This document shows, piece by piece, positions 1,788 through 43,995 of a stretch of DNA of 43,995 nt (position 1 is the stretch's first letter; every line of letters starts with the position of its first letter). A program made the translations under genes and the position numbers. Source of the stretch: an uncultured Candidatus Altimarinota bacterium (lineage in GTDB: Bacteria > Patescibacteriota > Gracilibacteria > BD1-5 > UBA2023); NCBI GenBank assembly GCA_938036655.1, contig CALHQS010000055.1, positions 1 to 43,995 of the forward strand, in the 5' to 3' direction. Below the pieces are notes generated by a model. The model saw nothing but the letters and a program-made list of their open reading frames with translations, made no database searches and was not told where the DNA came from.

Positions 1788-4700
1788 TTACTTGAAGTTT
1801 CTCCAAGTCTTGAGATTCCATCCGAGACCATTTTCTGCACGCTTCAAGAAGTATCGGATAATTCCGCGTCCTTCATCCGCATCCTTATGGCTGAAGAGCT
1901 CCATTCCGACTGAGATCCATCCGTCTTTGTAAAATGTCTCAAAGATTGGAGCATATTTTCCATCAATCAAGCTGTCCCAAACTGGACCACCAGGCCCACT
2001 TGACGAACGAGTCACAAGAGGAGGTTGTGGCTGTGGCTGTGGTTGTGGAGTTGGAGTTGTTCCATCATTCTTTGTGAGTTGGCCAATGAGTTGTGTGAGT
2101 TCATGTACGAGACCATCACGTTTTGTTACAGTGAGAGTTGCTGTGTCATCAAGAGCTGCTTTGGCTTCAGTAATCTTGTTCTGAAGAGCTGTTTTGTTGG
2201 CATCTGCTACTGTTTTTGGATCATTGAGAGCAGTTTCTGCTTCAGTGATTTTGTTCTGAAGATTAGTTGTGTCGATGGCTGTTGTATCTTCTTTTGTACC
2301 AACAAGCACCACCTGAGTCACTGGCTTCTTGATCACACGCTCTACGGCAGCAGTATGTTTAAGAACTACACCAGTTTTAGCATTTTTGAGATCGCGGTAT
2401 ACGATTTCTTTTTTACCTTTTTGACCTGGCGTTTTGATTTGTTTTTCACCTTTCTTGAGAGTATCAGTCTTTTCTTCAGTGATTTCAAAATTAATTTCTT
2501 CTTCTGTCTTGACAGCATCATACACAGTACGAAGCGTACCAACACGAACGGTTCGTTCTACTGGACGAACATCTGGATTAGCGATTTCGTATTCGATTTC
2601 AAATGCATCTTTGAGTGCTACTGGCATTTTTTCGTAACGAGTCAGATCGTTGATAGTTACCCCTTTCATCGCAATTTCTTTCTTTGATTCGAGTACTTTA
2701 CCCGCAGATGTACCAGTGGACACGATATAATCACCGAGCAAAAGTCCGTCCTTATCGTCTGTAAGATTTCCGAGCTTATAGTAATGAGTTTTGAGATCAG
2801 GATATGGATCAAGTACATTACGACCTCCTTTGTTAGCTGCAGCTATAATGGCATTATTTACTGCGGCCTTACCGACTTTGCGAGCTACTGAGACATTGAC
2901 AAGAGGCTTATCTTCAACTGTCTGTCCGAGTGGAAGATTCTCATCAATGATTGCTGTCATACGAATAGGAAGTTCTTTTGAAGAATCTTCTGTCGTTTCT
3001 TCGGCCATACGGGTTAGAGCAAAGTTTGTACGAGCATCATCCTTAAGAGTGCCCGCTGTAGCCGTTACATCAGCACTGTATTCTGCATCTTCATATGCAT
3101 CCATTCCATCTGTTGAAGTTGCGAGGTTAAGTGGATTTTTGGCAATAAATTCATTGTCACGAGCATAGCGAAGCGTGAACTGACTCGACAATACCCGAAG
3201 TGGCTTCGCTGCCGCAGCTGACGTAAGATCTACGCTATCTACCGTGATTTTGTTTCCCGCAAATACAAACGGCTGAGTGAATTGAAGCATTGATGGGAGA
3301 TTCGATGGCTTTGCACCTGTGTTCATCGTATAACCATTTACTTGCGGTTGCACGGTATGTCCCGTCAAACCAGTTACATTGATAAGAGGTTTAAGCGTGG
3401 CGTATGCTGATACGATTTTCCCCATATCAATCGCGTTACCAGTCATTTCGATTTTTTTGGCATTTGTATTGATCGAAATCACTGATTCTTGATTTGATGA
3501 CTTACCAATTACTGATTCTTTGAATTTGATGTTGTTGTTATTGAATTTGAGAGAACCATGGAATTTGTTCTGTCCCATTTCGGTTGTTTTTCCATCAGTA
3601 GTCGTGAGACCAACATTTCGTGTTGTTTCAGAAATATTGATTGGAGCATATTTTCCTACTTCCGCAACAATGCGATCAACATTTACTATGTTGTTAGTAA
3701 TGCGGATATCACCAGAACCGTATCCAATACCATTAGAGAATTTGCTAAAATCTTTTTGGAATTCTCGCCCAAGTTGCTGCCCATCAAGAGCGCTATTGAT
3801 GATTTTAAAAATATTGTTTGCAGAAACTCCTGAGATATCATTGTTATCGATGATGAGCTCATAATCAAGGTATGGTTCCTGCATACGAACCAACATCGCA
3901 TTGGCAATGTATGATTTTCCGTCGTGCGTGTTTCCTGATTCATCAAGTCCGCGAATCGTGTTGCCACTGATTTCAAAGTGACCTCGTGAACCATCTGTGC
4001 TAAGACGACGAGCCTTTTCGTTTGTCTGCAAATGAATCGCTTCAAACTGAAGATAGTCTCCATGAGGGTCAAATGCCCCATTGAGATGCAAATCATCGCG
4101 TTCCAGACGATTGTGTGTATCCTGGAAAACAGTGTTATTTCGAATCGTTACATTTTCCATTTTGAAAGTACGATTGTACACAGAAATACCAAGCAAACGG
4201 TCACCGTGCGAAATATTGTTTTCAATGAGAATATTGTCACCATCGTGGATATCAAGACCCTTACGGTAGTTGTGGCTTGTGAAGTTGTTGCGGAAAGTAA
4301 TATTGTTGTTCATAGAACCCGCTTCCGAAGCAAAACCATAACCAGTTCCACCAGATCGTGTATGCCCGTTTTCGTATGACACAGAATTACTGATTTCAAA
4401 TCCGTTCTGATATGAAAACTGAACACCCGCTACACGGTTTTGATACAAAATACTGTTTGTAACCTTGTTTCCTTCCATCATGCGAAGCACGCTAGCATCA
4501 GTATAATCACCACATCCTTTGTCATTAAGGCGCGTTATACCTGCAAGATTTGCAGCCACACAATAAGAAATAGAACGAAGTGTTCCACCAATATTAAGTT
4601 TTTTCACACCATTGTATGCTGATGTGAATCGCACACCAGCCTTATTGGCACCAGTCACTTCAACATTATCCACTGTTACATGCTGAGAATCACTCACATG

Positions 4701-5672
4701 GATACCGTCTACTTTTCCATGATATGGGAACCCTTTCACATAAAAGGCTGGATCAAGGTCGCCATTGCGCTTGATGCGAAGTGAAAAATCTTTCACAAAG
4801 AAATTGTCATGATCTTCCACGAGAAGCACCGCATGGTCACGATTATCAGTATCGTTTTCATTTGGATTCCATGGTTCACCAAACTGTACAAGGCTTGTTG
4901 TAATAGTTGTTGTTGCAAGACCATCACCGAAGAATCCTTTTACATGAGGCAATTCTTTGTCGATTTTAATCTGCTGGAAAAGCCCATCCTTTCGATAAAT
5001 TGGGAAGATAATTCCGTGATGTTTTTTCTTATCAGAATCAGTATATTCTACTACGCCTTCTTCTACATAACTAATTTTTTTAAATTCTTCAGGAGTAATA
5101 TTTGCTGGATTAGCAACACCAGCGAGTGTCGCTCCACTAACTTTCTGACCAAGTCCACTATCGTATGTACGAAGTTCGTAGTGGTCAAGCACTGCACCAT
5201 CACGGGCAATATTTACCACACCAGAAACTTGCACCGCTACACCTCGAGTTTCCTGACCATTCTGAACAATGATCGTATTATTCGCGGCCTGAAGCGTTGC
5301 TACTACTGCTGGAGTATCATCCTGATTATCTTCTGTATTAAGTCCAAAATCACGAGCGTCAAGATAGAAAACATTATTTTCTTTATCAAAATATACTGGA
5401 TAATTCACTTCTGAACCATCAGCTGTTTTTACAGTCACACCAGAAGTGGTATCAATTGGTGTTGCCTGAGGTTTTGCTGTTGTAGTAGCTGCTGGTGCTG
5501 CTGGAGTTAGTGTCGCAGGAACAGCTACTACTGGGTCACTTTCTGCGGCCAATACTGAATAGGTTACATGGTTAGAAAGAATTGGCGATGCCATAACTGC
5601 GGCGATCATTGCCATACTTCCAAGACGGGCGTTCATTCTAGTAGAACGAGGCTCTGCTGTCTGTTTTTTCAT
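1788..5672 (-). CDS. Large secreted surface protein: signal peptide, right-handed beta-helix (pectate-lyase-like) repeats, G5 domain, helical repeats, PQ linker, basic C-terminal domain
   Basis: Uninterrupted 1294-aa ORF. N-terminus MKKQTAEPRSTRMNARLGSMAMIAAVMASP. Beta-helix motifs such as NNITFRNNFTSHNYRKGLDIHDGDNILIENNISHG. G5-like block EINFEITEEKTDTLKKGEKQIKTPGQKGKKEIVYRD...VVLVGTKE. Repeats LQNKITEAETAL / LQNKITEAKAAL. PQPQPQPQP linker. Visibly more GC-rich than its neighbours. Confidence 0.85.
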   Translation of the reverse strand: MKKQTAEPRSTRMNARLGSMAMIAAVMASPILSNHVTYSVLAAESDPVVAVPATLTPAAPAATTTAKPQATPIDTTSGVTVKTADGSEVNYPVYFDKENNVFYLDARDFGLNTEDNQDDTPAVVATLQAANNTIIVQNGQETRGVAVQVSGVVNIARDGAVLDHYELRTYDSGLGQKVSGATLAGVANPANITPEEFKKISYVEEGVVEYTDSDKKKHHGIIFPIYRKDGLFQQIKIDKELPHVKGFFGDGLATTTITTSLVQFGEPWNPNENDTDNRDHAVLLVEDHDNFFVKDFSLRIKRNGDLDPAFYVKGFPYHGKVDGIHVSDSQHVTVDNVEVTGANKAGVRFTSAYNGVKKLNIGGTLRSISYCVAANLAGITRLNDKGCGDYTDASVLRMMEGNKVTNSILYQNRVAGVQFSYQNGFEISNSVSYENGHTRSGGTGYGFASEAGSMNNNITFRNNFTSHNYRKGLDIHDGDNILIENNISHGDRLLGISVYNRTFKMENVTIRNNTVFQDTHNRLERDDLHLNGAFDPHGDYLQFEAIHLQTNEKARRLSTDGSRGHFEISGNTIRGLDESGNTHDGKSYIANAMLVRMQEPYLDYELIIDNNDISGVSANNIFKIINSALDGQQLGREFQKDFSKFSNGIGYGSGDIRITNNIVNVDRIVAEVGKYAPINISETTRNVGLTTTDGKTTEMGQNKFHGSLKFNNNNIKFKESVIGKSSNQESVISINTNAKKIEMTGNAIDMGKIVSAYATLKPLINVTGLTGHTVQPQVNGYTMNTGAKPSNLPSMLQFTQPFVFAGNKITVDSVDLTSAAAAKPLRVLSSQFTLRYARDNEFIAKNPLNLATSTDGMDAYEDAEYSADVTATAGTLKDDARTNFALTRMAEETTEDSSKELPIRMTAIIDENLPLGQTVEDKPLVNVSVARKVGKAAVNNAIIAAANKGGRNVLDPYPDLKTHYYKLGNLTDDKDGLLLGDYIVSTGTSAGKVLESKKEIAMKGVTINDLTRYEKMPVALKDAFEIEYEIANPDVRPVERTVRVGTLRTVYDAVKTEEEINFEITEEKTDTLKKGEKQIKTPGQKGKKEIVYRDLKNAKTGVVLKHTAAVERVIKKPVTQVVLVGTKEDTTAIDTTNLQNKITEAETALNDPKTVADANKTALQNKITEAKAALDDTATLTVTKRDGLVHELTQLIGQLTKNDGTTPTPQPQPQPQPPLVTRSSSGPGGPVWDSLIDGKYAPIFETFYKDGWISVGMELFSHKDADEGRGIIRYFLKRAENGLGWNLKTWRNFK
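2023..2048 (-). repeat. Hexanucleotide microsatellite (TGTGGY x4 on the plus strand) encoding the PQPQPQPQ linker
   Basis: ggttgtggctgtggctgtggttgtgg read directly from the sequence, inside the surface-protein CDS. Confidence 0.7.
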
Positions 5673-5962: not shown

Positions 5963-6117
5963 TTATAATATTTTGAAATAAGATAAAACAACATCACACA
6001 AGAATTGGTGTTACGATAAAAAGCCAAAGTGCTACAGGTGCACTACGAAAATCAGAAAATGGTCGTGGGAGTAATCACAAAAAATCAGGGAAAAAATTTG
6101 TCATACAATAAAATATG

Positions 6118-6715
6118 ATTGGAAACAGTAGAAATTTACTAATGAAATTTGAGGAAAAAAAGATGATTAACAAGCGGATATCTACAACAGTAGAAATTTA
6201 CTAATGAAATTTGAGCACTTGGATGCAAGAAAAATAGAATAATCTACAACAGTAGAAATTTACTAATGAAATTTGAGTTATTAGTTCGAAGCGAGAAGAG
6301 TTTTTATCTACAACAGTAGAAATTTACTAATGAAATTTGAGATGAGAACAATGATACGGAATCGATCATCTACAACAGTAGAAATTTACTAATGAAATTT
6401 GAGTGCTCAAGATACTATAGGAAGTCTTGCATCTACAACAGTAGAAATTTACTAATGAAATTTGAGCTTCCCTGCTTGGCTGGTTTTCGCGCATCTACAA
6501 CAGTAGAAATTTACTAATGAAATTTGAGTTCTTTTGTGTAGTAAAGGCCACCGAATCTACAACAGTAGAAATTTACTAATGAAATTTGAGTAAGCCCGAT
6601 AAATATATGCTTGACATATCTACAACAGTAGAAATTTACTAATGAAATTTGAGTATTCCTTCTGCGGTAGGGTACCAGCATCTACAAAAGTAGAAATTTA
6701 CTAATGAAATTTGAG
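6118..6715 (-). CRISPR. CRISPR array with Cas12a/type V-A-like repeats: 10 repeats of 36 bp, 9 spacers of 26-28 bp
   Basis: Plus-strand repeat ATCTACAACAGTAGAAATTTACTAATGAAATTTGAG starts at 6118, 6180, 6242, 6306, 6368, 6431, 6493, 6555, 6618 and 6680. The minus-strand reading CTCAAATTTCATTAGTAAATTTCTACTGTTGTAGAT ends in AAUUUCUACUGUUGUAGAU. The repeat at 6118 is degenerate (4 mismatches), marking the distal end. The repeat at 6680 has one C>A change in the predicted loop. All spacers are unique. Confidence 0.95.
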
Positions 6716-12900: not shown

Positions 12901-13104
12901 TCAAAAATTAAAAATTTTCCCGAGGATTCCAATCACGAGCAAAGCGACGACTATTCTGGCGAACAGCGTCTTCACTCGAGAAAGGAACCAAATTGCAATC
13001 ACCAACGCCACCCAAAATGGCTTGATTGGCAACATAATGAACCCAATGAGCAACAACATTGGCATACACAAAATAATGAATGTCCATTTGAGAAATGTAA
13101 GCAT
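12901..13104 (-). CDS. Small (67 aa) two-helix hydrophobic protein, paralog of 12589..12789
   Basis: ATG at 13104 preceded by GAGGAG-N5. MLTFLKWTFIILCMPMLLLIGFIML...VALLVIGILGKIFNF. Shares the C-terminal FNF with its paralog. Confidence 0.55.
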   Translation of the reverse strand: MLTFLKWTFIILCMPMLLLIGFIMLPIKPFWVALVIAIWFLSRVKTLFARIVVALLVIGILGKIFNF

Positions 13105-32684: not shown

Positions 32685-34931
32685 ATGATTCTTTGACTCA
32701 AAGACAAAGACGCTATTTCGCGTCAAATTGTCGAAAAAACATACGAAATTGCCGGCAAGAAAATCACTTTTGAAAGTGGTCGTTTGGCGCTTTTTGCACA
32801 AGGTTCAGCCGTGATTCGTGATGAAAATGGGAATTTTTTGTTGACGACAGCTGGCATTGGCCAGCCAAAAAGTGGCGATTTTTTCCCGCTCACAGTAGAA
32901 TATCAAGAAAAATATTACGCCAGCGGTAAAATCGGTGGAAATCGCTTCCAGAAGCGAGAAGGTCGCCCAAGCGAAGCAGCCATTTTGAATTCTCGATTGA
33001 TCGATCGCCCGATTCGTCCGATGTTTCCAAAAAATACTCGCACCGAAGTGCAGATTATTTCGACGATTATGTCATCTTCTGGTGCATCAGATTTTGGTTT
33101 TTTCGGAATTACTGGTGCGAGTCTTTCGCTTATGCTCGCTGGCGTGAATGATTTTGAAGGACCAATCGCGGGCGTACGAATCGCAGCTGATGAGGCGGGT
33201 AATTTTATTTTTGATCCGACATTTGAAGAACTCGAAAAATCGCATCTCGATTTGACGGTTGCGGGAACGGCCGAGACGATTACGATGGTGGAAAGTCAGG
33301 GCCATGAAGTGGACAATGATCTTATGATTCGTGCGTTTGAATTTGCGCACAAAATTATCGTGGAATTGTGCCACGCACAAAGCGATTTTGTAGCGGAATA
33401 TCAGAAAATTTATGAACTTCCAAAAGTGGAACTTTCGCTTGCAGAAGAAAATACCGAACTCATAGAGATGACTAAAAATTTGGTTTCTCGTGAAATTTTG
33501 GACGCATTTTATGGTCTTGGAAAAACCGAATTTTATGACAAATATAATGAAGTAGTTGCGGATTTTATCAATATCATTGCCGCCAAAAAATTCGAAAATC
33601 TGAACGAAAATGAAACGATTTCGCTCGAAGAAATACTTGAAAAAATTGATCAAAATGCGATTGCGGACGCTCTCAAAGATGCTATCAAAACAGATATGCG
33701 AGCGCGAGTTTTGGAGCAAAAAATTCGCCTTGATGGTCGCACACCAAACGAAGTGCGGCCCGTTCGTGCAAGTACGGGACTTTTACCACGTACACACGGA
33801 TCAGGGCTTTTTGAACGTGGTGTAACGCAAGTACTTTCTGTGACGACGCTTGGTGGGCCGAGTGATATTCAGATTGTGGATGATATGTATGAAGAAGATC
33901 TCAAACGATATGTGCATCACTACAATTTTCCACCATTTTCCGTAGGTGAAGTTCGTCCGCTTCGTGGAGTTGGTCGTCGAGAAGTTGGGCACGGGCGCCT
34001 TGCAGAAAAAGCGCTCGAACCAGTGTTGCCATCAGAATCAGATTTTCCATATATGATTCGCGTTGTTTCTGAAACGACAACTTGTAACGGATCTTCTTCT
34101 ATGGCGTCCGTTTGTGGTTCTACAATGTCGCTCATGGATGCTGGTGTTCCTATCAAGGCGATGGTAGCAGGAGTGGCGATGGGAATGATTTTTGACGAAG
34201 AAACAGGAAAATTCGTGATTTTGTCAGATATTCAGGCGCAGGAAGATTTTTTGGGTGATATGGATTTTAAGGTGGCTCGCACTGAAAAATGAATCACTGC
34301 CCTACAAATGGATTGTAAAATTTCTGGATTGACAATGGAAGTGATTCGTTCGGTATTTAATCAGTCAGTTGAAGCAATTTCGTATATTATGGGTGAAATG
34401 AAAAAGAGTCTTGACGCGCCTCGTCCAGAACTTTCTCCGTATGCGCCATTTTTGCTGGCAATTTTTGTGCCAGAAGACAAAATGCGCGAAGTGATCGGAA
34501 AAGGTGGTGAAACTATTCAAGGAATTGAAAAAAATTTTGGTGTGGAAGTGGACTTGCAAGATGATGGACATTGTACGATTACTGCCAAGACGCAAGAATC
34601 GGGAAAAAAGGCACTCGATTTTATCAAAAATATTTTGAAAGATATTGAGGTTGGCGACGAGTACGAAGGGAAAATTACCAAAATTCTGGATACGGTTGGG
34701 GCGATTGTAGAGCTCGGAAAAGGAAAAGAATGAATGATTCATATTTCCAAATTTGGTGTCAAAGAACGCGTTGAAAATGTAAACAGCGTTGCTAAGATTG
34801 GTGAAATTGTTAAAGTTCGTGTTTACAAAGTAGAAAAAGATAAGAATCGTATTGGTCTAGAAAAAATTGTTCCGGAAGCAGAAAAAACAGAAAAAATCGA
34901 AAATTCAGAACAAACAACAGAAAAAGCATAA
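32685..34931 (+). CDS. pnp: Polyribonucleotide nucleotidyltransferase (PNPase), 748 aa
   Basis: Three sense TGAs (32694, 34290, 34731) join the ORF pieces. FKVARTEK[TGA]ITALQMDCKISG (consensus ..GITALQMD..), a KH domain, then GKGKE[TGA]MIHISKF (S1 domain). Confidence 0.93.
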
Positions 34932-37500: not shown

Positions 37501-39090
37501 TTATTTTTCATCAGATTTTTTCTCAGATTGTGCTTGCTTCATAAATGGGAAATACTGCACTTCACGAATTGGCTTTCCTTCCAAGAATGCAAAAAGTCGC
37601 TCACCAAAGCCAAAACCACAAGTTGGCGGCATTCCGTGTTCCAACATTTCGATAAATTCCCAATCTGGCATCATCGCTTCATCATCACCACCTTCGAGCA
37701 TTTCTTGTTGTTTTTCAAAACGCTCACGCTGGTCGATTGGATCATTCAATTCGCTGTAACCATTCCCCACTTCTGAACCTGCAATGATTGGTTGGAATCG
37801 TTCCACTTTTCCTGGGAATTTTTCTGAAACCTTGGCGAGTGGCGAAATCAATTCTGGATGATTCACCAAAAAAGCTGGTCCAGCAATCTGTTTACGCACA
37901 TATTTCCAGAGCGTATCAGTCAATCGTTCACGATTAGTTCCTTCGTATTTTACACCCAATTCCTCAAGCTTGTGGCGCATTTCGTCATCAGTCGCTGTCA
38001 AAAGATTAATCCCAGTGCGTTCTTCTACCGCTGTCAAATAGTCAATTCGTGGCCATTCTCCGGCAAGATCGAATTCAAGACCCTTATGAGAAAATTTGGT
38101 TGTTCCATACACAGATTTTGCGATATGTTGGTACAATCCCTGCACAAAGCGCATTCCATCCTCATAATCAGCATACGCCCAATAAAATTCGAGATTCGTA
38201 AATTCTTGCAGATGGTCTGGGCTTGACCCTTCATTTCGGTACGCACGACCAATTTCAAAAGTTTTTGGAAAGCCTCCGGCCATCAATCTTTTTTGCCACA
38301 ATTCTCCGATAGAAATTCGCAAAAATACGTCTACATCATAGTCGTTGTGATGCGTTGCAAATGGGCGCGCCTCTGCCCCACCCGTTGTATGTTCAAGCGT
38401 TGGCGTTTCCACTTCCAAAAATCCGTGCTGCTTCAAATATTCTCGCGTTGCATCCCAGAATTTTGACTTTCGCACAAACATGGCGCGCAACTCATCGTCA
38501 GTCGCCATATCAAGATATCGCTTGCGGTAGCGCTCTTCATCACTTTCAATTCCGTGGAATTTTTCTGGAAGCGGCCGAATCGCTTTCGTCAAAAATGAAA
38601 ATTCTTCTGCAAAAATCGTCAATTCCCCCTTGTGTGTATAAAATAATTCTCCGCGCACACCGATAAAATCTCCCATATCCACGAGCTTTTCTGCAAATTT
38701 GTACGCAGACATTTCTTCGTTTTCAGAATTTTTGAGAATTTCGAGCGATTGTCCTCCAACGCGAATTTTACAATTTTCACGAGAAAAAAGAATTTGAATT
38801 TTTCCCGTTCCATCGTTAATGGTAGCAAAACAAATTTTCCCAAAACTTCGGTGCAACATCACGCGACCAGCCACAGAAAATTCTGATTTTGGTGACGCCA
38901 CAACATCAGTCACATCGCGAAGTGGACTCGTCTCGCCTTCATCCAATGATGATTTAAATTTTTCAAGAATTTGTGCAATTTGATGATTGGCATCAAATTT
39001 TGTTGCAAATGGATTCACGCCAAAATCCTTAATTTTTTCCAGTTTTTTGATACGATCAAGCGTTTCGTTTGAATAATTTGGTGTTGTCAT
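37501..39090 (-). CDS. lysS: Lysine--tRNA ligase, class II
   Basis: Full 529-aa ORF. OB-fold N-domain, class II motifs (FLEVETP, YRNEGSSPDHLQEFTNLE, GFGFGERL). Confidence 0.95.
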   Translation of the reverse strand: MTTPNYSNETLDRIKKLEKIKDFGVNPFATKFDANHQIAQILEKFKSSLDEGETSPLRDVTDVVASPKSEFSVAGRVMLHRSFGKICFATINDGTGKIQILFSRENCKIRVGGQSLEILKNSENEEMSAYKFAEKLVDMGDFIGVRGELFYTHKGELTIFAEEFSFLTKAIRPLPEKFHGIESDEERYRKRYLDMATDDELRAMFVRKSKFWDATREYLKQHGFLEVETPTLEHTTGGAEARPFATHHNDYDVDVFLRISIGELWQKRLMAGGFPKTFEIGRAYRNEGSSPDHLQEFTNLEFYWAYADYEDGMRFVQGLYQHIAKSVYGTTKFSHKGLEFDLAGEWPRIDYLTAVEERTGINLLTATDDEMRHKLEELGVKYEGTNRERLTDTLWKYVRKQIAGPAFLVNHPELISPLAKVSEKFPGKVERFQPIIAGSEVGNGYSELNDPIDQRERFEKQQEMLEGGDDEAMMPDWEFIEMLEHGMPPTCGFGFGERLFAFLEGKPIREVQYFPFMKQAQSEKKSDEK

Positions 39091-39297
39091 AAAAATTTTT
39101 AAAACAATTCAACTATAATGAATTTTAAGGGAAAATCAAGGGGAAATTTTGAACAATCACAAAAAATCTGAAAAAAATTTTCTACCCAAAAAAAATTCCA
39201 AGAAAAAAGAAAAAATTTGCGTTTTTATTTTGCTTTTTTGAAAAATTTGTATATATTGGAAAATAGCCTTTTTAACAGAATTCTTAACAGAAAAAAT

Positions 39298-40662
39298 ATG
39301 AATATTCCAAACAGAGTGAAGGGTACGCAGGATATTTTTGGTGAGTACCAGCGATATTTCACATTTCTCAAAAAACTCGCGCGACACGAATTCCGAACGA
39401 ACGGATTTACGCGCATTTCAACACCAATTTTGGAACACACAGACCTCATCGCGCGATCAAGCGGTGCGTCAAGTGATGTTGTTTCCAAAGAAATGTACGA
39501 AATGACCGACAAAGGCGGGCGTTCGCTCGTGATGAAGCCAGAGGGAACGGCTGGTGTGATGCGCGCATATCTCGAACATATGCTCGATGAACCACAGCCT
39601 GTGTATCTGTATTACATTGAACCACATTTTCGATACGATCGCCCGCAGAAAGGTCGATATCGTCAGTTTCATCAGATTGGTGGAGAAATCATCGGCGAAG
39701 AAGATCCAATTTTGGATGCCAAAATGATTCACATCATGAAAAATCTCATGGATTCTGCGGGACTTGCTGGCACTTATACGATCAAAATCAATTCTCTTGG
39801 CGTAGAAAAAGAACGCGAAAAATATCTCATCGAATTGCAGTCATTTTTTGAAGGACGTAAACATTTGCTCGATGAAACAGATTTGCACCGACTCGCGACA
39901 AATCCACTTCGAATTTTGGATTCCAAAAATCCTGATGTTCAAGAACTTCTCAAAATCGCTCCAAAAATTACTGATTTTCTCAAGGGAGATTCGAAAAAAT
40001 TTTATGAAAGTGTGAAAGAATATTTGACAATTCTTGGCGTAGAATTTATAGAAGATCCGACGCTCGTTCGTGGTTTGGATTATTATTCTCACACGGTTTG
40101 GGAATTTGTAGACGGATCTGGGCGCACGCAGGACGCCTTTGGTGGTGGTGGGCGCTATAATTCGCTCGCAAAATCTATCGGCTACAAAAATGAAGTTCCA
40201 GCCGTTGGGTTTGCGCTCGGTGTGGAACGACTCATTGAAGCCATGATGGCACACGGTGTAAAACTCAAAAACAAAGATTCTATTCACCTCTATATCGTGC
40301 AACTTGGTGACGACGCGAAAAAACTTGCACTTCCTCTCAATCTCGAATCCCGAAAAAAAGGCATCAATTCTCTTTTGTCGCTCGGAACGCCATCTATCAA
40401 AGTTCAACTCAAAAAAGCCAATCGCGTGGGTGCTCGATTTGTGGCAATTATCGGCATTATGGAAGCCAAAAAAGGCGTTTGTCAACTCAAAGATATGGAA
40501 AAAGGAACGCAGGAAGAATGTCATCTTGACGATGTGATTCATCGCGTAGTAGAGGCTATCGGAACGGAAAATCTTTCTTTTTATCATCCATCATTTGACT
40601 GGGTGATTGAACCACCAAAAATGGAAGAAAATCCTGAAAATCCAGAAAATATCACGGAATAA
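39298..40662 (+). CDS. hisS: Histidine--tRNA ligase
   Basis: MNIPNRVKGTQDIFGEY..., YYIEPHFRYDRPQKGRYRQFHQIG, GGGGRYNSL, and a C-terminal anticodon-binding domain. The ATG at 39298 is preferred over the longer track ORF. Confidence 0.93.
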   Translation: MNIPNRVKGTQDIFGEYQRYFTFLKKLARHEFRTNGFTRISTPILEHTDLIARSSGASSDVVSKEMYEMTDKGGRSLVMKPEGTAGVMRAYLEHMLDEPQPVYLYYIEPHFRYDRPQKGRYRQFHQIGGEIIGEEDPILDAKMIHIMKNLMDSAGLAGTYTIKINSLGVEKEREKYLIELQSFFEGRKHLLDETDLHRLATNPLRILDSKNPDVQELLKIAPKITDFLKGDSKKFYESVKEYLTILGVEFIEDPTLVRGLDYYSHTVWEFVDGSGRTQDAFGGGGRYNSLAKSIGYKNEVPAVGFALGVERLIEAMMAHGVKLKNKDSIHLYIVQLGDDAKKLALPLNLESRKKGINSLLSLGTPSIKVQLKKANRVGARFVAIIGIMEAKKGVCQLKDMEKGTQEECHLDDVIHRVVEAIGTENLSFYHPSFDWVIEPPKMEENPENPENITE

Positions 40663-40879: not shown

Positions 40880-42700
40880 ATGTGTGGTGTTTTTGGATAT
40901 ATTGGACAATCTGGAAAAGCCTCAAGTGAGGTTCTTGCAGGTTTGCAGCGGCTCGAATATCGCGGTTATGATAGCGCAGGACTTTGCGTTCTCAATCACG
41001 ACAAATCTTTGCAAATTATTAAATCTGTTGGAAAAGTTGGCAATCTCAAAGTAAAAACTGAAAGTTATGAGCTCGGTTCATATCACATCGGAATCGGCCA
41101 CACGCGCTGGGCAACGCACGGAGGCGTAACGGAGGCAAATTGTCATCCGCATTATTCTCATTCTGAGCGTTTTATCGTGATTCATAACGGAATTATTGAG
41201 AATTATGCCGAACTCAAAAAAGAACTTTCAGCAAAATATGATTTTTATTCTGAAACAGACACAGAAGTTGCAGTAAAACTTTTTGAAGATTTGTGTGATG
41301 GTGATCACATCGCAACGCTTCTCAAACTCAAAGAAAAAATCCACGGCGCATATGGGCTCGTATTTTTGGATCGCGAAAATCCTGATATGCTTTTTGGCGT
41401 GAAAAAATGATCACCAATGGTACTCGGATTTGGTGGCAATGAAAAATTTATTTCATCAGATTATCGCGCGCTCATCGGACTCATTGAGGATTATATTATT
41501 TTGGAAGACGGCGATGTTTTCATGATGACGCCGATAGATTATACGATTATTTCAGAAAATCCGAATGAAATCCGCACCAAAATGCAGATTGATGAAACAG
41601 AAAAACAGGCGGAATTGGGTGATTTTGAACATTTTATGCTCAAAGAAATTTTTGATCAGGGAGCGGTGATTCGCGATGTTTTCCGTGGGCGCGTAGATTT
41701 TGAAAACGCGAGCCTACATTCTGAAACACTCAACGAAATTGCGCCGAAAAATTTTGAAAAAATCACGATTGTCGCATCAGGAACAAGTTATCACGCGGGG
41801 CTTATGGGAAAATATTATTTGGAAGAATTGGCGGATATTCCGACTGATGTGATTGTTTCGGCTGAATTTAAGTACAAGAAAAAATTTATTGATGACAAAA
41901 CGCTTTTTGTGTTTGTTTCACAATCGGGCGAAACAGCCGATGCGCTCGATTCGCTCAAAATCGTAAAAGAACAAGGTGGAAATGTCTTCGGAATCGTCAA
42001 TGTGCCAGGATCGGCTATTGCACGAACGACGGGACAAGGCCTCTACACGCGAGCAGGCATTGAAGTGGGAGTTGCCTCAACAAAAGCATTTACAACACAA
42101 GTCGTGACATTTTTGATCATGGCACTTCACCTCGGAAAACGCCGAAATCTCGACTATCGTCGATACCGAGAAATTCTTTCTGGACTTGAAAAATTACCAG
42201 ACGCTATTGAAAAAATTTTGGAGAAAAAATCTGAAATCCAAAAAGTTGCCAACAATTTTGCGCATTACAAAAATTTCTTTTTCTTGGGTCGCGGTGCAGA
42301 ATTGCCAATCGCGATGGAGGGCTCGCTCAAGCTCAAAGAAATCAGTTATATTCATTCAGAAGCATATGCATCAGGCGAGCTCAAGCACGGCTCAATTGCA
42401 CTCATCGATCATGATTTTCCGACGATTATGGTGAATGGAAAAACTTCATTATACGAGAAAAATATTTCGAGTGTACAAGAAATCAAAGCACGCGATGGGC
42501 AAGTAATTGGCGTAGTGGCGAGCGATGATCCAAAAAAAGATATGTACGATGCGGTGATGACTTTTGATTCTATCCAGAGCGATGTAGATCCAATTTTGGA
42601 AGTGGTGATTTTGCAATTATTTTCATATTTTGTAGCGCTTCATCTGGATCGAGAAATCGACAAACCGAGAAATTTGGCAAAATCTGTGACGGTGGAGTAG
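40880..42700 (+). CDS. glmS: Glutamine--fructose-6-phosphate aminotransferase (isomerizing)
   Basis: MCGVFGYIG (N-terminal Cys nucleophile), GHTRWATHG, GVKK[TGA]SPMVLGFG (consensus ..GSPL.iG.G), two SIS domains, C-terminal LAKSVTVE. Confidence 0.95.
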
Positions 42701-42714
42701 GAAAATTTATAAAA

Positions 42715-42744
42715 AATAAAATCCCTTAAAATAGGGATTTTATT
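42715..42744. terminator. Bidirectional terminator atccct-taaaat-agggat
   Basis: Between the glmS TAG (42698-42700) and the convergent TAA (42740-42742). Confidence 0.6.
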
Positions 42745-43066
42745 TTATCTCACAAAGATTTGTAATTAGATAATTTTTACAAACACAGGGATTATCATTG
42801 TATTCCCATACATGAAAGGCTGATGATATAATTTCTTGTTTTTTTGGTTGAAAAGACTTATTAACACAACTTGCAGCAAATCACAAGCAATCGTCTTCAG
42901 CTTGACAAGAACGAACAGTTGGAATTTGCAAAGGGGAATAACCATTATTAAGACTAAAATCTGAATACCAAATAAGAGACATGAAAATAAGTATTCCTAA
43001 TAATAGAAATACTATTATTTTTTGAAAAACGGAAATTTTTTTATTGCTGGAAGATAGCATAATCAT
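42740..43066 (-). CDS. Small secreted 6-Cys protein, copy 1 (108 aa)
   Basis: Track ORF 42881..43066 continues through a sense TGA. Signal/anchor KIIVFLLLGILIFMSLIW, then C-x5-C-x6-C-x26-C-x-C-x8-C (SCQAEDDCL[TGA]FAASC...PCVCKNYLITNLC). Confidence 0.55.
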
Positions 43067-43077
43067 ATCAGTAATGA

Positions 43078-43254
43078 CTATTTAAAATATCAATAGGTTT
43101 TACAATATTTCATCCATCACTGTCAATATCCCATTGCATTGCAAATACTTAAACGAGACATAGCTTGTGCCATCATATCAGAATATGGTCGATTCAAAAG
43201 CATTGTATTGACATAACTTGTAAGAAAATTTTTATTTGTAGTGTTCAAAGACAT
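43078..43254 (-). CDS. Mini-protein a (58 aa) ending ...ICNAMGY[TGA]Q[TGA]WMKYCKTY[TGA]YFK
   Basis: ATG at 43252-43254 to TAG at 43078-43080, with three sense TGAs. Shares the motif IC-x(1-3)-[FY]G-x-GWM-x-YC with mini-protein b. Absent from the standard-code track. Confidence 0.4.
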
Positions 43255-43327
43255 TTTTTTAACTACAATTTTATCGTATTTTCTTCATTTTGCTTGTAAA
43301 AAATCAAGAATCCCTATTTATGGGGTT

Positions 43328-43606
43328 TTATTTTCATATGCAATGATGAAATACACATTGACATTCTATATCATAGTTTATTAGAACTTGCGTAAGTCAA
43401 TGCTTTAATCATCCATCATAATTTTTGTTAATGCAAATATTATTATATTCTCGAGCCACACACTGATCATCTGCTTGACAAGAAAATTTTTCACTATAGT
43501 ATCATACATCAAATATAGAATAATAATTACTTCATCCTAATGATAACCATCATAAAATTACAATTATTAATATAGTAGTGCTTATAATGAGTAGTTTTTT
43601 AATCAT
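43328..43606 (-). CDS. Small secreted 6-Cys protein, copy 2 (92 aa)
   Basis: MIKKLLIISTTILIIVIL signal/anchor, six sense TGAs, framework C-x5-C-x8-C-x23-C-x-C-x4-C (SCQADDQC...ECQCVFHHC). Promoter-like TTGACA-N17-GATACT upstream. Confidence 0.55.
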
Positions 43607-43647
43607 ATTATAAGTCGTAGTATCTCACTTTGCCATATATTTGTCAA

Positions 43648-43731
43648 TTAATTAAATCCACAGGCCAAACAATAAATCATCCATCCATGTCCAAATCAAC
43701 AAATCTTACTCAATTCAAATAAGCTAACCAT
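43648..43731 (-). CDS. Mini-protein b (27 aa): MVSLFELSKIC[TGA]FGHGWMIYCLACGFN
   Basis: ATG at 43729-43731 to TAA at 43648-43650. C-terminal motif paralogous to mini-protein a. Confidence 0.35.
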
Positions 43732-43761
43732 ATTGATTGGGAATAATAAATTTTATTGGTA

Positions 43762-43995
43762 CTATTTTTTGTTACATATATAAAAAGAACATTGACAAGG
43801 AGGATTGTCGAGTATATATGGTTCAAATCATTTGAAATTTTTATATTCAATATTTCAACATGCATCATGATGTTCTGAATATTTACATTGATAATCTTCT
43901 AAACATCATATTTGTCTATGGGGTGCTAGTATTTCAATGTCATGGAAAAATTTGAAATACGCAGCTAGTAATAGAATTAAAATAAGAAATATTAT
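43762..43995 (-). CDS. Small secreted 6-Cys protein, copy 3 (5' end beyond the window)
   Basis: ...IIFLILILLLAAYF anchor, then [TGA]CLEDYQCKYSEHHDAC[TGA]NIEYKNFK[TGA]FEPYILDNPPCQCSFYICNKK followed by TAG. Framework C-x5-C-x8-C-x20-C-x-C-x4-C. Confidence 0.5.

Follow-up and report, generated by a model that had tools for sequence, protein, structure and literature searches.

What do the minus-strand open reading frames (ORFs) at the end of a contig from an uncultured Candidatus Altimarinota bacterium (CALHQS010000055.1, assembly GCA_938036655.1) encode? The 43,995 nucleotides of this contig, hereafter the window, had been described in an earlier note as ending in an array of five such ORFs (A to E), in which three secreted mini-proteins with six cysteines (Cys) alternate with two short peptides sharing a GxGWMxYC motif, a possible bacteriocin or signalling family. 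Our results give a different answer. The six-Cys ORFs (A, C and E) are real genes, the two peptides (B and D) are artefacts, the recurring module consists of an enzyme gene plus a six-Cys partner gene, and the window keeps orphan remnants of such modules; we hold these structural conclusions with high confidence. When structure and function are taken jointly, the reading that we favour, with a probability somewhat above even, is that of a polymorphic, effector-immunity-like locus, closest in kind to Tox-Act1/Imm-Act1.

Six-cysteine genes in a recoded genome

A sensible reading of the window needs UGA as a sense codon. The single in-frame TGA of GlmS (X179) aligns to the Gly of RSGSPLVIG in Escherichia coli GlmS, those of PNPase (32685-34931, plus strand; X536 and X683) align to the Gly residues of GITALQMD and GKEGMIHIS, and TGA and GGN codons are swapped at homologous positions in a five-way alignment of the array paralogs. 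These alignments show that table 25 applies to the window and confirm the UGA = Gly reading made earlier. No UGA-decoding tRNA is found in the window, where tRNA and Rfam scans give tRNA-Gly(GCC) only. Dense use of UGA had also been taken as the mark of native genes, and this holds only in part. The genes do belong to the UGA = Gly system, but TGA makes up 54% (15/28) of the Gly codons in five six-Cys genes and 61% (17/28) in two intact genes of the enzyme described below (L007 2107-2907 and L011 2111-2938), against 1.5% (7/459) in eleven housekeeping genes. The array also has a GC content of 23-32%, versus ~38% over the whole window. Its composition thus sets it apart from the remaining window as foreign, although it belongs to the UGA = Gly system.

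The same locus is present on human oral metagenome contigs (L001-L005), as identified by an exact match of the table-11 GlmS C-terminal fragment; among them, the 257-kb scaffold L001 matches the window tail at 3991 of 3995 positions. The closest named relatives are Candidatus Gracilibacteria bacterium GN02-873 (MORC01000001.1, L019) and an oral metagenome-assembled genome (MAG; JABCOP020000009.1, L018), whose housekeeping flanks are 92-95% identical to the window. They were found by a scan of the GTDB species representatives, run with the C-type alignment (A6), the broad six-Cys alignment (A5) being too diverse. The end of the window is one edge of a hypervariable locus located between glmS and ruvB in human-oral Candidatus Gracilibacteria of the GN02-873 group.

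A re-check finds all five ORFs where they had been placed (Table 1). The window contains three instances of the framework C-x5-C-x6-8-C-x20-26-C-x-C-x4-8-C, all of them in this array. The length of the ORFs is unpersuasive, as in Markov-shuffled sequence of the 27% GC stretch, with TAA and TAG as the only stops, the longest chance ORF reaches 85 +/- 22 codons and two ORFs of at least 92 codons are obtained in 7.5% of the trials. ORF length was dropped as evidence for genes after this simulation, and the evidence must therefore be comparative.

As the earlier note had anticipated, the array runs past the window. ORF-A is complete in L001 (12346-12612, 88 aa), and two further paralogs, C' and A', are located ~1.4-2 kb on. 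The five six-Cys paralogs of this genome (A, C, E, A' and C') are all intact, and all six Cys are invariant in their alignment, for an overall identity of 25-53%. The proportions of nonsynonymous (pN) and synonymous (pS) differences are 0.28 and 0.76 between A and A', and 0.30 and 0.94 between C and C', both pairs being 53% identical. A pN this low against a saturated pS is characteristic of a frame that is translated and kept by purifying selection. Every Cys is also kept in the ORF-E alleles of L007, L009, L018, L019 and L006, with a pN/pS of about 0.3-0.55. Database homologs amount to 13 proteins in a word-indexed search of 5.8 billion proteins and to 8 in an exhaustive hidden Markov model search of 1.84 billion cluster representatives. 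Mostly truncated or W-for-G translations from oral samples, one of them named Candidatus Gracilibacteria by NCBI, they are confined to related oral Gracilibacteria contigs, with profile E-values down to 1e-31. They include homologs of ORF-E (P0006-P0011) and of ORF-A (P0002, P0004), and ORF-C has homologs in Ca. Gracilibacteria GN02-873 (91%) and in the oral MAG (75%). Remoter members that keep the Cys framework are encoded by L011 and by two tandem genes of L015, and P0018 has additional transmembrane (TM) helices. The framework, searched for across oral Gracilibacteria contigs and MAGs, is conserved in these related genomes. Because of their paralogy, of a pN well below pS and of their conservation in other genomes, we judge ORFs A, C and E to be genuine genes of a lineage-restricted family; three paralogous, N-terminally anchored and presumably disulfide-rich small proteins had indeed been missed by table 11.

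In each six-Cys protein, a short, mostly positive N-flank leads to a single, strongly hydrophobic segment of 19 residues (mean Kyte-Doolittle 2.6-3.2), with the Cys domain behind it; in ORF-E, the segment corresponds to residues 17-35 and the N-flank is positively charged. No obvious signal-peptidase site is seen past the hydrophobic segment by sequence inspection. The AlphaFold2 model of P0004, the ORF-A homolog, contains a TM helix (2-25) and a four-strand domain, with a predicted local distance difference test (pLDDT) score of 79.8. These proteins have no match in Pfam, PHROGs, PADLOC or PDB sequences, nor by Foldseek against PDB or BFVD. Their six Cys would form three disulfides per protein; a VKOR-family gene (PF07884; possible disulfide-forming oxidoreductase) is located ~8 kb from the array (L001 19688-20137), which makes extracytoplasmic disulfide formation plausible.

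An enzyme gene beneath the two short peptides

The motif of the two peptides, IC..G.GWM.YC, is literally present in ORF-B and ORF-D, and nowhere else in the window. The DNA of ORF-B is, at 99% identity, the 3' end of a 266-aa enzyme gene that is intact in L007/L008, and intact also in L034, L037 and L040. This gene, hereafter P1, ends in ...YCSQSIWLAYLNgVRFVDLDMDGgFIVWPVDLINgQIYGKVRYYDL*, and its stretch GAC ATG GAT GGA TGA TTT ATT GT, read one base off, gives H-G-W-M-I-Y-C, that is, the motif of ORF-B. GxGWMxYC arises from GA(T/C) (ATG/AGT) GAT GGA TGA shifted by one base, GAT GGA TGA becoming G-W-M. The DNA of the ORF-D motif encodes DIDSDGgNIVKP in the enzyme frame, and every GWMxYC motif in 121 kb of related loci overlies the D-x-D-x-DGG of a neighbouring enzyme frame. 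The peptide frame, still open within the intact L007/L008 gene, is broken by stops in the paralogous enzymes P2 (L009) and P3 (L001).

ORF-D is composed of two parts. Residues 1-36 come from within the enzyme and keep its reading frame (TSYVNTMLLNRPY vs ARYVQNNLYNKPY), and residues 37-58 (ICNAMGYgQgWMKYC...) are a frameshifted read-out made by a 53-nt deletion. This deletion, located between 43147 and 43146 in the window and absent from L018 and L009 in a three-way alignment, takes out the KgNYNNLYCS(K/Q)gPW... segment with its catalytic Cys and, by the frameshift, produces the GWMKYC reading. In L018, the enzyme frame is uninterrupted through the whole ORF-D region, to ...FAMQWDIDSDGgNIVKSIDILNSHYgYDYAIFQQ*.

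ORF-B and ORF-D are, by these comparisons, best read as off-frame images of enzyme remnants and not as genes. In L001, A' and C' are separated by 8 nt, with no peptide ORF in between, and neither ORF-B nor ORF-D has a Pfam match. As the motif is off-frame, the enzyme is intact in sister strains and no peptide separates A' from C', the bacteriocin-like reading is unsupported, and the hidden peptide family, headline claim of the earlier note, does not survive. The likeness to the YGNGVxC box of class IIa bacteriocins is superficial, being limited to a G-x-G...C look and to short ORFs upstream of a small membrane protein gene. ORF-B reads FGHGWMIYC and ORF-D YGQGWMKYC, with no YGNGV, no C-x4-C spacing, no double-glycine leader and no conserved peptide frame, their relatives reading the DNA in the enzyme frame. 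Neither an ABC transporter with a C39 peptidase nor accessory genes are found among the genes called within 10 kb on each side in L001, nor in L018/L019. For recoded genomes, these results mean that, with two stops and AT-rich DNA, off-frame ORFs over homologous pseudogene remnants can mimic a conserved peptide family, motif included.

The window retains remnants of two enzyme types. The homology of the P1 remnant (...KNSTNKIYYSQSIWLAYLNgVRFVDLDMDGgFIVWPVDLINgQIYGKVRYYDL*) begins exactly at the stop of ORF-A, and its own stop precedes the ORF-C start by 1 nt. In the P2 remnant, positions 43138-43319 are 97% identical to near-full-length enzyme genes of L009/L010, and the tail, which reads MQWDIDSDGgNIVKPIDILNSHYgYDYAIFQQ*, overlaps the start of ORF-E by 26 nt.

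The enzyme paralogs (P1, P2, P3, the L011 protein and P4 of L023) share a Sec-type signal peptide and a charged helical linker of ~90 aa, followed by a ~160-aa domain with an invariant GD strand, a His and the Cys of YC(S/T)Q...WLA(Y/F), and by a C-terminal tail, D-x-D-x-DGG-x(3)-P-x-D. Peptidase_C92 (PF05708, YaeF/YiiX permuted papain-like amidase) is the top Pfam match of two paralogs, at sub-threshold scores (E 0.0016 and 0.0035), and this family is the only one matched in Pfam and PDB; NCBIfam adds LnsA (NlpC/P60 lipoprotein N-acylation protein), which matches two paralogs. A PDB search with a profile of the catalytic domain alone (the full-length alignment is dominated by the coiled-coil linker) gives E. 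coli YiiX (2if6) as its sole sequence match, with an E-value of 0.015 and with GD, His and YCS aligned. The order of the residues is the permuted one, the invariant H40 preceding C123 (alignment A7) and both aligning to the His and YCS of 2if6. In a low-confidence AlphaFold2 model of the enzyme domain (P0021, 4-row alignment, pLDDT 51), His21 is placed in a strand (20-25) and Cys104 starts a helix (104-117). The enzyme differs from YiiX/YaeF by its additional signal peptide and ~90-aa linker, its D-x-D-x-DGG-x-I/V-x-P-x-D tail and its location next to a partner gene in a variable, multi-copy locus. We consider it a putative, divergent YiiX-like permuted NlpC/P60 enzyme with a His...Cys dyad, whose scores stay below those set for family membership. 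In this superfamily, enzymes of the permuted branch usually target lipid acyl groups (PMC12994826).

Several copies of the enzyme gene carry changes. The codon of the catalytic Cys of P1 is TAT (Tyr) in the window remnant (~43745) and in the otherwise intact gene of L007 (2107-2907), and TGT (Cys) in P0019, L019, L034, L036, L037 and L040. P3 (L001 12622-13460, minus strand) needs a frame change near 13060, between GDIIIFRgKPE and KSFTKIMG, in every copy seen (L001, L019, L021, L022 and the 61-member protein cluster P0021), and P2 is split in L009 (~1785) and L010 by an A6 versus A7 run. The frame breaks of P3 and P2 could be pseudogenes, phase variation or programmed frameshifting.

YiiX-like lipoproteins of ~200 aa (lipobox ...LVISCQS) are also encoded in standard-code organisms (L025-L033, L038-L041 and L044; contigs up to 2.5 Mb, GC 29-30%). 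They share RLYCSQ and NVDLDSDGG with the Gracilibacteria enzymes, at 26-30% identity, have no adjoining six-Cys gene, and could be the source or a sister of these enzymes.

Table 1. Features at the glmS end of the window (positions of the forward strand).
Feature	Position	Strand	Remarks
ORF-A	43762..43995	-	A-type TM + six-Cys; 77 of 88 codons inside the window; start codon 33 nt past window end
P1-type YiiX-like enzyme remnant	43608..43769	-	last 53 codons + stop; 99% DNA identity to L007/L008 3' end
ORF-B	43648..43731	-	27-aa peptide of the earlier note; wholly within the P1 remnant, other frame
ORF-C	43328..43606	-	92-aa C-type TM + six-Cys; alternative start 43636 = 102 aa; 6 TGA
P2-type YiiX-like enzyme remnant	43041..43319	-	no 5' half; tail in enzyme frame 43041-43139
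ORF-D	43078..43254	-	58-aa peptide of the earlier note; residues 1-36 in enzyme frame, 37-58 frameshifted
ORF-E	42740..43066	-	108-aa E-type TM + six-Cys (106 aa from 43060); 1 TGA
Hairpin (13 bp) + U-run	42706..42745	-	overlaps ORF-E stop; RNAfold -13.8 kcal/mol; glmS ends 42700
glmS	40880..42700	+	conserved gene flanking the variable locus; convergent orientation relative to the array

Modules and mosaicism between glmS and ruvB

The repeated two-gene module of the earlier note is found again, in a modified form: an enzyme gene plus a six-Cys gene recurs across strains, and the second member is a ~270-aa secreted enzyme, not a small Cys peptide. The six-Cys gene starts 1 nt after the enzyme stop in the P1-C pair, 9 nt after it in P3-A and 11-26 nt before it in L011 and P2-E (range -26 to +10), so that both genes overlap or abut in L007, L009, L011, L034, L036, L037 and L040. 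The pairing is P1-C in L007, L011 (where the enzyme is only 46% identical), L034, L036, L037 and L040, P2-E in L009, L010, L018 and the window, and P3-A in L001 and L019. A fourth intact enzyme, P4 (287 aa, L023 2617-3480), is located upstream of A'-C' and is missing from L001; the ~0.8 kb between this enzyme and A' includes a 136-codon ORF also present in L001.

The 5' ends of the enzyme genes are shared, and their bodies are not. L001 13744-13385 is 97% identical to L007 1823-2182, over the promoter and signal-peptide region, and beyond it the enzyme bodies (P1 versus P3) are without homology. P1, P2, P3 and P0023 all begin MKRIFSFLVALILVSSSFGV. In P0023 (L020 51-806), the signal peptide MKRIFSFLVALILVSSSFGVTFAQE precedes an unrelated 251-aa cargo without family match, followed by a hairpin. 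This suggests that the signal-peptide region is a landing pad for differing cargos.

L007 has the order NUDIX, P1, C, P2-remnant, E', glmS. In the window lineage, P3 and A replace the P1 body, so that only the last 53 codons of P1 remain, immediately behind the stop of ORF-A. Between the two lineages, identity is 99% for the C module (L001 12353-11722 vs L007 2746-3377) and 95% for glmS; likewise, the E allele of the window differs from that of L018 at a pS of 0.03 even though glmS is 93% identical, in a family whose E alleles differ at a pS of about 0.38. Because the C module and the E allele are closer than glmS, these comparisons point to a recent lateral exchange of modules. In L018, the C gene (5986-6276) is a recombinant that begins as C' and ends as C, and the whole segment between these two paralogs (NUDIX, P3, A and the P1 remnant) is gone. 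Finally, L006 and L015 contain tandem six-Cys genes without any enzyme.

The strain of the window has no intact enzyme at this locus: P3 needs a frame change, P1 is a 53-codon stub, P2 is a stub with the 53-nt deletion and the fourth type is absent. Two orphan modules are present in the window, each with a 5'-truncated enzyme and an intact partner, namely the P1 remnant followed by ORF-C and the P2 remnant followed by ORF-E.

The hairpin that overlaps the ORF-E stop is probably a bidirectional terminator shared with the convergent glmS; it is the only one that looks like a terminator, the hairpin after ORF-C being weak (-4.8 kcal/mol). A promoter scan stays at chance level. Elsewhere in the window, the LysRS ORF (37501-40587, minus strand) has, under two stops, a spurious 5' extension of ~500 codons with 7 TGAs, as compared with 0 in the true gene (MTTPNYS...), a caution for ORF calling under table 25. 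At 1788-5672 (minus strand), a 1294-codon ORF without any TGA (MKKQTAEPRSTRMNARLGSMAMIAAVMASP...) occupies a 41% GC stretch of a composition unlike that of the remaining window.

Effector and immunity, or other functions

Polymorphic toxin loci are said, following Zhang et al. in 2012, to contain displaced orphan modules made of a toxin 3' end plus its immunity gene, as for cdiA-CT/cdiI in contact-dependent inhibition (CDI) and for Rhs orphans. The locus studied here resembles them by a constant 5' part with variable 3' enzyme parts, by a small partner directly downstream that co-varies with the enzyme type (with the exception of L023), by 5'-truncated fragments with intact partners, and by modules of atypical composition that are swapped faster than their flanks diverge. 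This pattern fits polymorphic effector-immunity loci. Unlike in CDI and Rhs loci, the constant part is limited to a promoter and a Sec signal peptide (at most ~47 aa shared by two types), a large delivery domain and a linked type V, VI or VII secretion system are both lacking, and the host belongs to the candidate phyla radiation (CPR) with UGA = Gly; toxicity and immunity would here be deduced from the layout. The closest relative in kind is Tox-Act1, a type VI secretion system (T6SS) phospholipase toxin with a permuted NlpC/P60 fold and a membrane-associated immunity protein (PMC12994826). The Tox-Act1/Imm-Act1 and TseH/TsiH pairs (PMC12994826) have in common with our module, as predicted here, a permuted, His-before-Cys papain-like core of the YaeF/YiiX-LRAT group, an effector acting outside the cytoplasm and a membrane-associated partner encoded directly downstream. 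The likeness to Tox-Act1 is one of predicted fold group and of layout, not of sequence, the best matches here being YiiX and LnsA; in addition, export would depend on Sec and not on a T6SS, and the partner is a one-TM six-Cys protein without known relatives.

The repeat unit is predicted to encode a ~270-aa Sec-secreted protein (signal peptide, ~90-aa linker, C-terminal YiiX-like domain) and a protein of 90-108 aa with one N-terminal membrane helix and a ~55-aa extracytoplasmic domain containing the six invariant Cys. Recombination at the shared 5' end (promoter and signal peptide) probably imports new enzyme bodies together with their partner genes, older modules being displaced downstream as 5'-truncated orphan fragments whose partner genes stay intact. 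Once exported by Sec, the enzyme could attack envelope lipids or, less likely, amide bonds, and the six-Cys protein, anchored N-in/C-out with three disulfides, could bind and block its cognate enzyme at the producer's own membrane. The strain of the window might then be an immune non-producer with an immunity-only repertoire. Taken separately, the effector-immunity function has in our view slightly less than an even chance; the conflict-type flavour of the earlier proposal, an effector with a cognate partner, is nevertheless supported by the polymorphic pattern, the enzyme taking the place of the peptide.

A number of results weigh against this effector-immunity reading. The two PF05708 matches (18.9 and 17.8 bits) are below the curated cut-off of 27, the NCBIfam YiiX family permuted papain-like enzyme (NF007458) matches three paralogs with 13-17 bits for an equivalog-level cut-off of 216, and Foldseek finds no match in PDB with the low-confidence enzyme model (pLDDT 51). 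For reaching a target cell, the enzyme has a Sec signal alone and no recognised delivery domain: no Pfam domain is found in its N-terminal part, and no secretion-system genes among the neighbours in L001 and L018/L019. The L023 enzyme is without an adjacent six-Cys gene, A' and C' being ~0.8 kb downstream. A pN/pS below 1 gives no sign of positive selection on the six-Cys domain, and the lone, partnerless lipoproteins of standard-code organisms would also fit an enzyme with a housekeeping function in the envelope.

Among the alternatives, a chance origin of all five ORFs in AT-rich DNA with two stop codons is close to impossible. The simulated ORF lengths would allow it, but it is refuted in the case of A, C and E by invariant Cys, a pN far below pS and E-values to 1e-31; B and D come close to being chance products, as they are by-products of the DNA of another gene. 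It is highly improbable that B and D encode small secreted peptides of one Cys-containing family, resembling bacteriocins or signals, each with a six-Cys partner or immunity protein: the motif does occur twice and each ORF does precede a six-Cys gene, but ORF-B lies inside an intact enzyme gene elsewhere, the tail of ORF-D is owed to a deletion, the motif mirrors the D-x-D-G-G enzyme tail in every locus, the frame is closed in paralogs and missing between A' and C', Pfam gives no match, and such sizes are expected by chance. A degraded prophage lysis cassette, with an endolysin-like NlpC/P60 enzyme and a one-TM holin-like protein, is very unlikely as well. The pair has a single phage link, a distant similarity of P1 residues 117-263 to phrog_29771 (E = 3e-6), a family of unknown function, and a Phage_lysozyme2-domain gene is located ~7 kb beyond the array (L001 18664-19059). 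The cassette is disfavoured because tblastn and pattern scans find no phage homologs, be it of the enzyme among 50,697 phage genomes or, in IMG/VR, of either the enzyme or the C-type protein, and because no viral fold matches; moreover, the locus contains no phage structural or replication genes in L001 and L018/L019, the enzyme has its own Sec signal, and tandem, type-variable modules are atypical of lysis cassettes.

Two other explanations accept both genes and assign them different roles. The six-Cys proteins might be the active products, as adhesins, toxins or signals, next to an unrelated or accessory enzyme. Such a role is suggested by a family expansion that does not follow the enzyme (five paralogs in this genome, tandem pairs in L015) and by the allelic mosaicism of its genes, but it is improbable in view of the translationally coupled position behind the enzyme, which recurs in at least three enzyme types and a divergent lineage, and of the lack of an obvious signal-peptidase site after the hydrophobic segment. 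That enzyme and six-Cys protein co-operate, the latter docking, activating or presenting the enzyme for remodelling of the cell's own lipids or lipoproteins, or for attack on the host bacterium of a presumed episymbiont, is unlikely, though less so. Tight, overlapping and type-specific pairs are in agreement with it, the weak LnsA matches recall two-component lipoprotein acylation, and the related Absconditabacteria are reported to be epibiotic predators (PMC8080830). However, even where the enzyme is broken or missing, the partner genes remain intact and subject to purifying selection, and arrays of partners exist without any enzyme (L006, L015), a pattern that fits immunity genes more easily than cofactors.

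Within the effector-immunity reading, the proteins with a TM segment and six Cys would belong to a family not described before, whose members, anchored in the membrane and stabilised by disulfides, would confer immunity to lipid-targeting, YiiX-like effectors secreted through Sec. In that case, the glmS-ruvB island would be a polymorphic toxin-like, effector-immunity system of code-25 CPR bacteria, used by oral Gracilibacteria strains against each other or against host bacteria, with non-producers hoarding orphan immunity genes; we advance this wider proposal tentatively, as it is somewhat more likely to be wrong than right. Neither the six-Cys family nor the enzyme-partner locus is present in Pfam, NCBIfam, PADLOC or the literature searched. 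To our knowledge, the oral Gracilibacteria (GN02) have no characterised physiology, nor characterised interactions with neighbours or hosts. If the proposal is true, the six-Cys domain would be a new partner or immunity fold for the recently recognised lipid-targeting NlpC/P60 effectors. A strain-variable, secreted permuted-papain enzyme associated with a private, membrane-anchored Cys-rich family is, finally, a testable candidate for a role in the interactions of oral Gracilibacteria.

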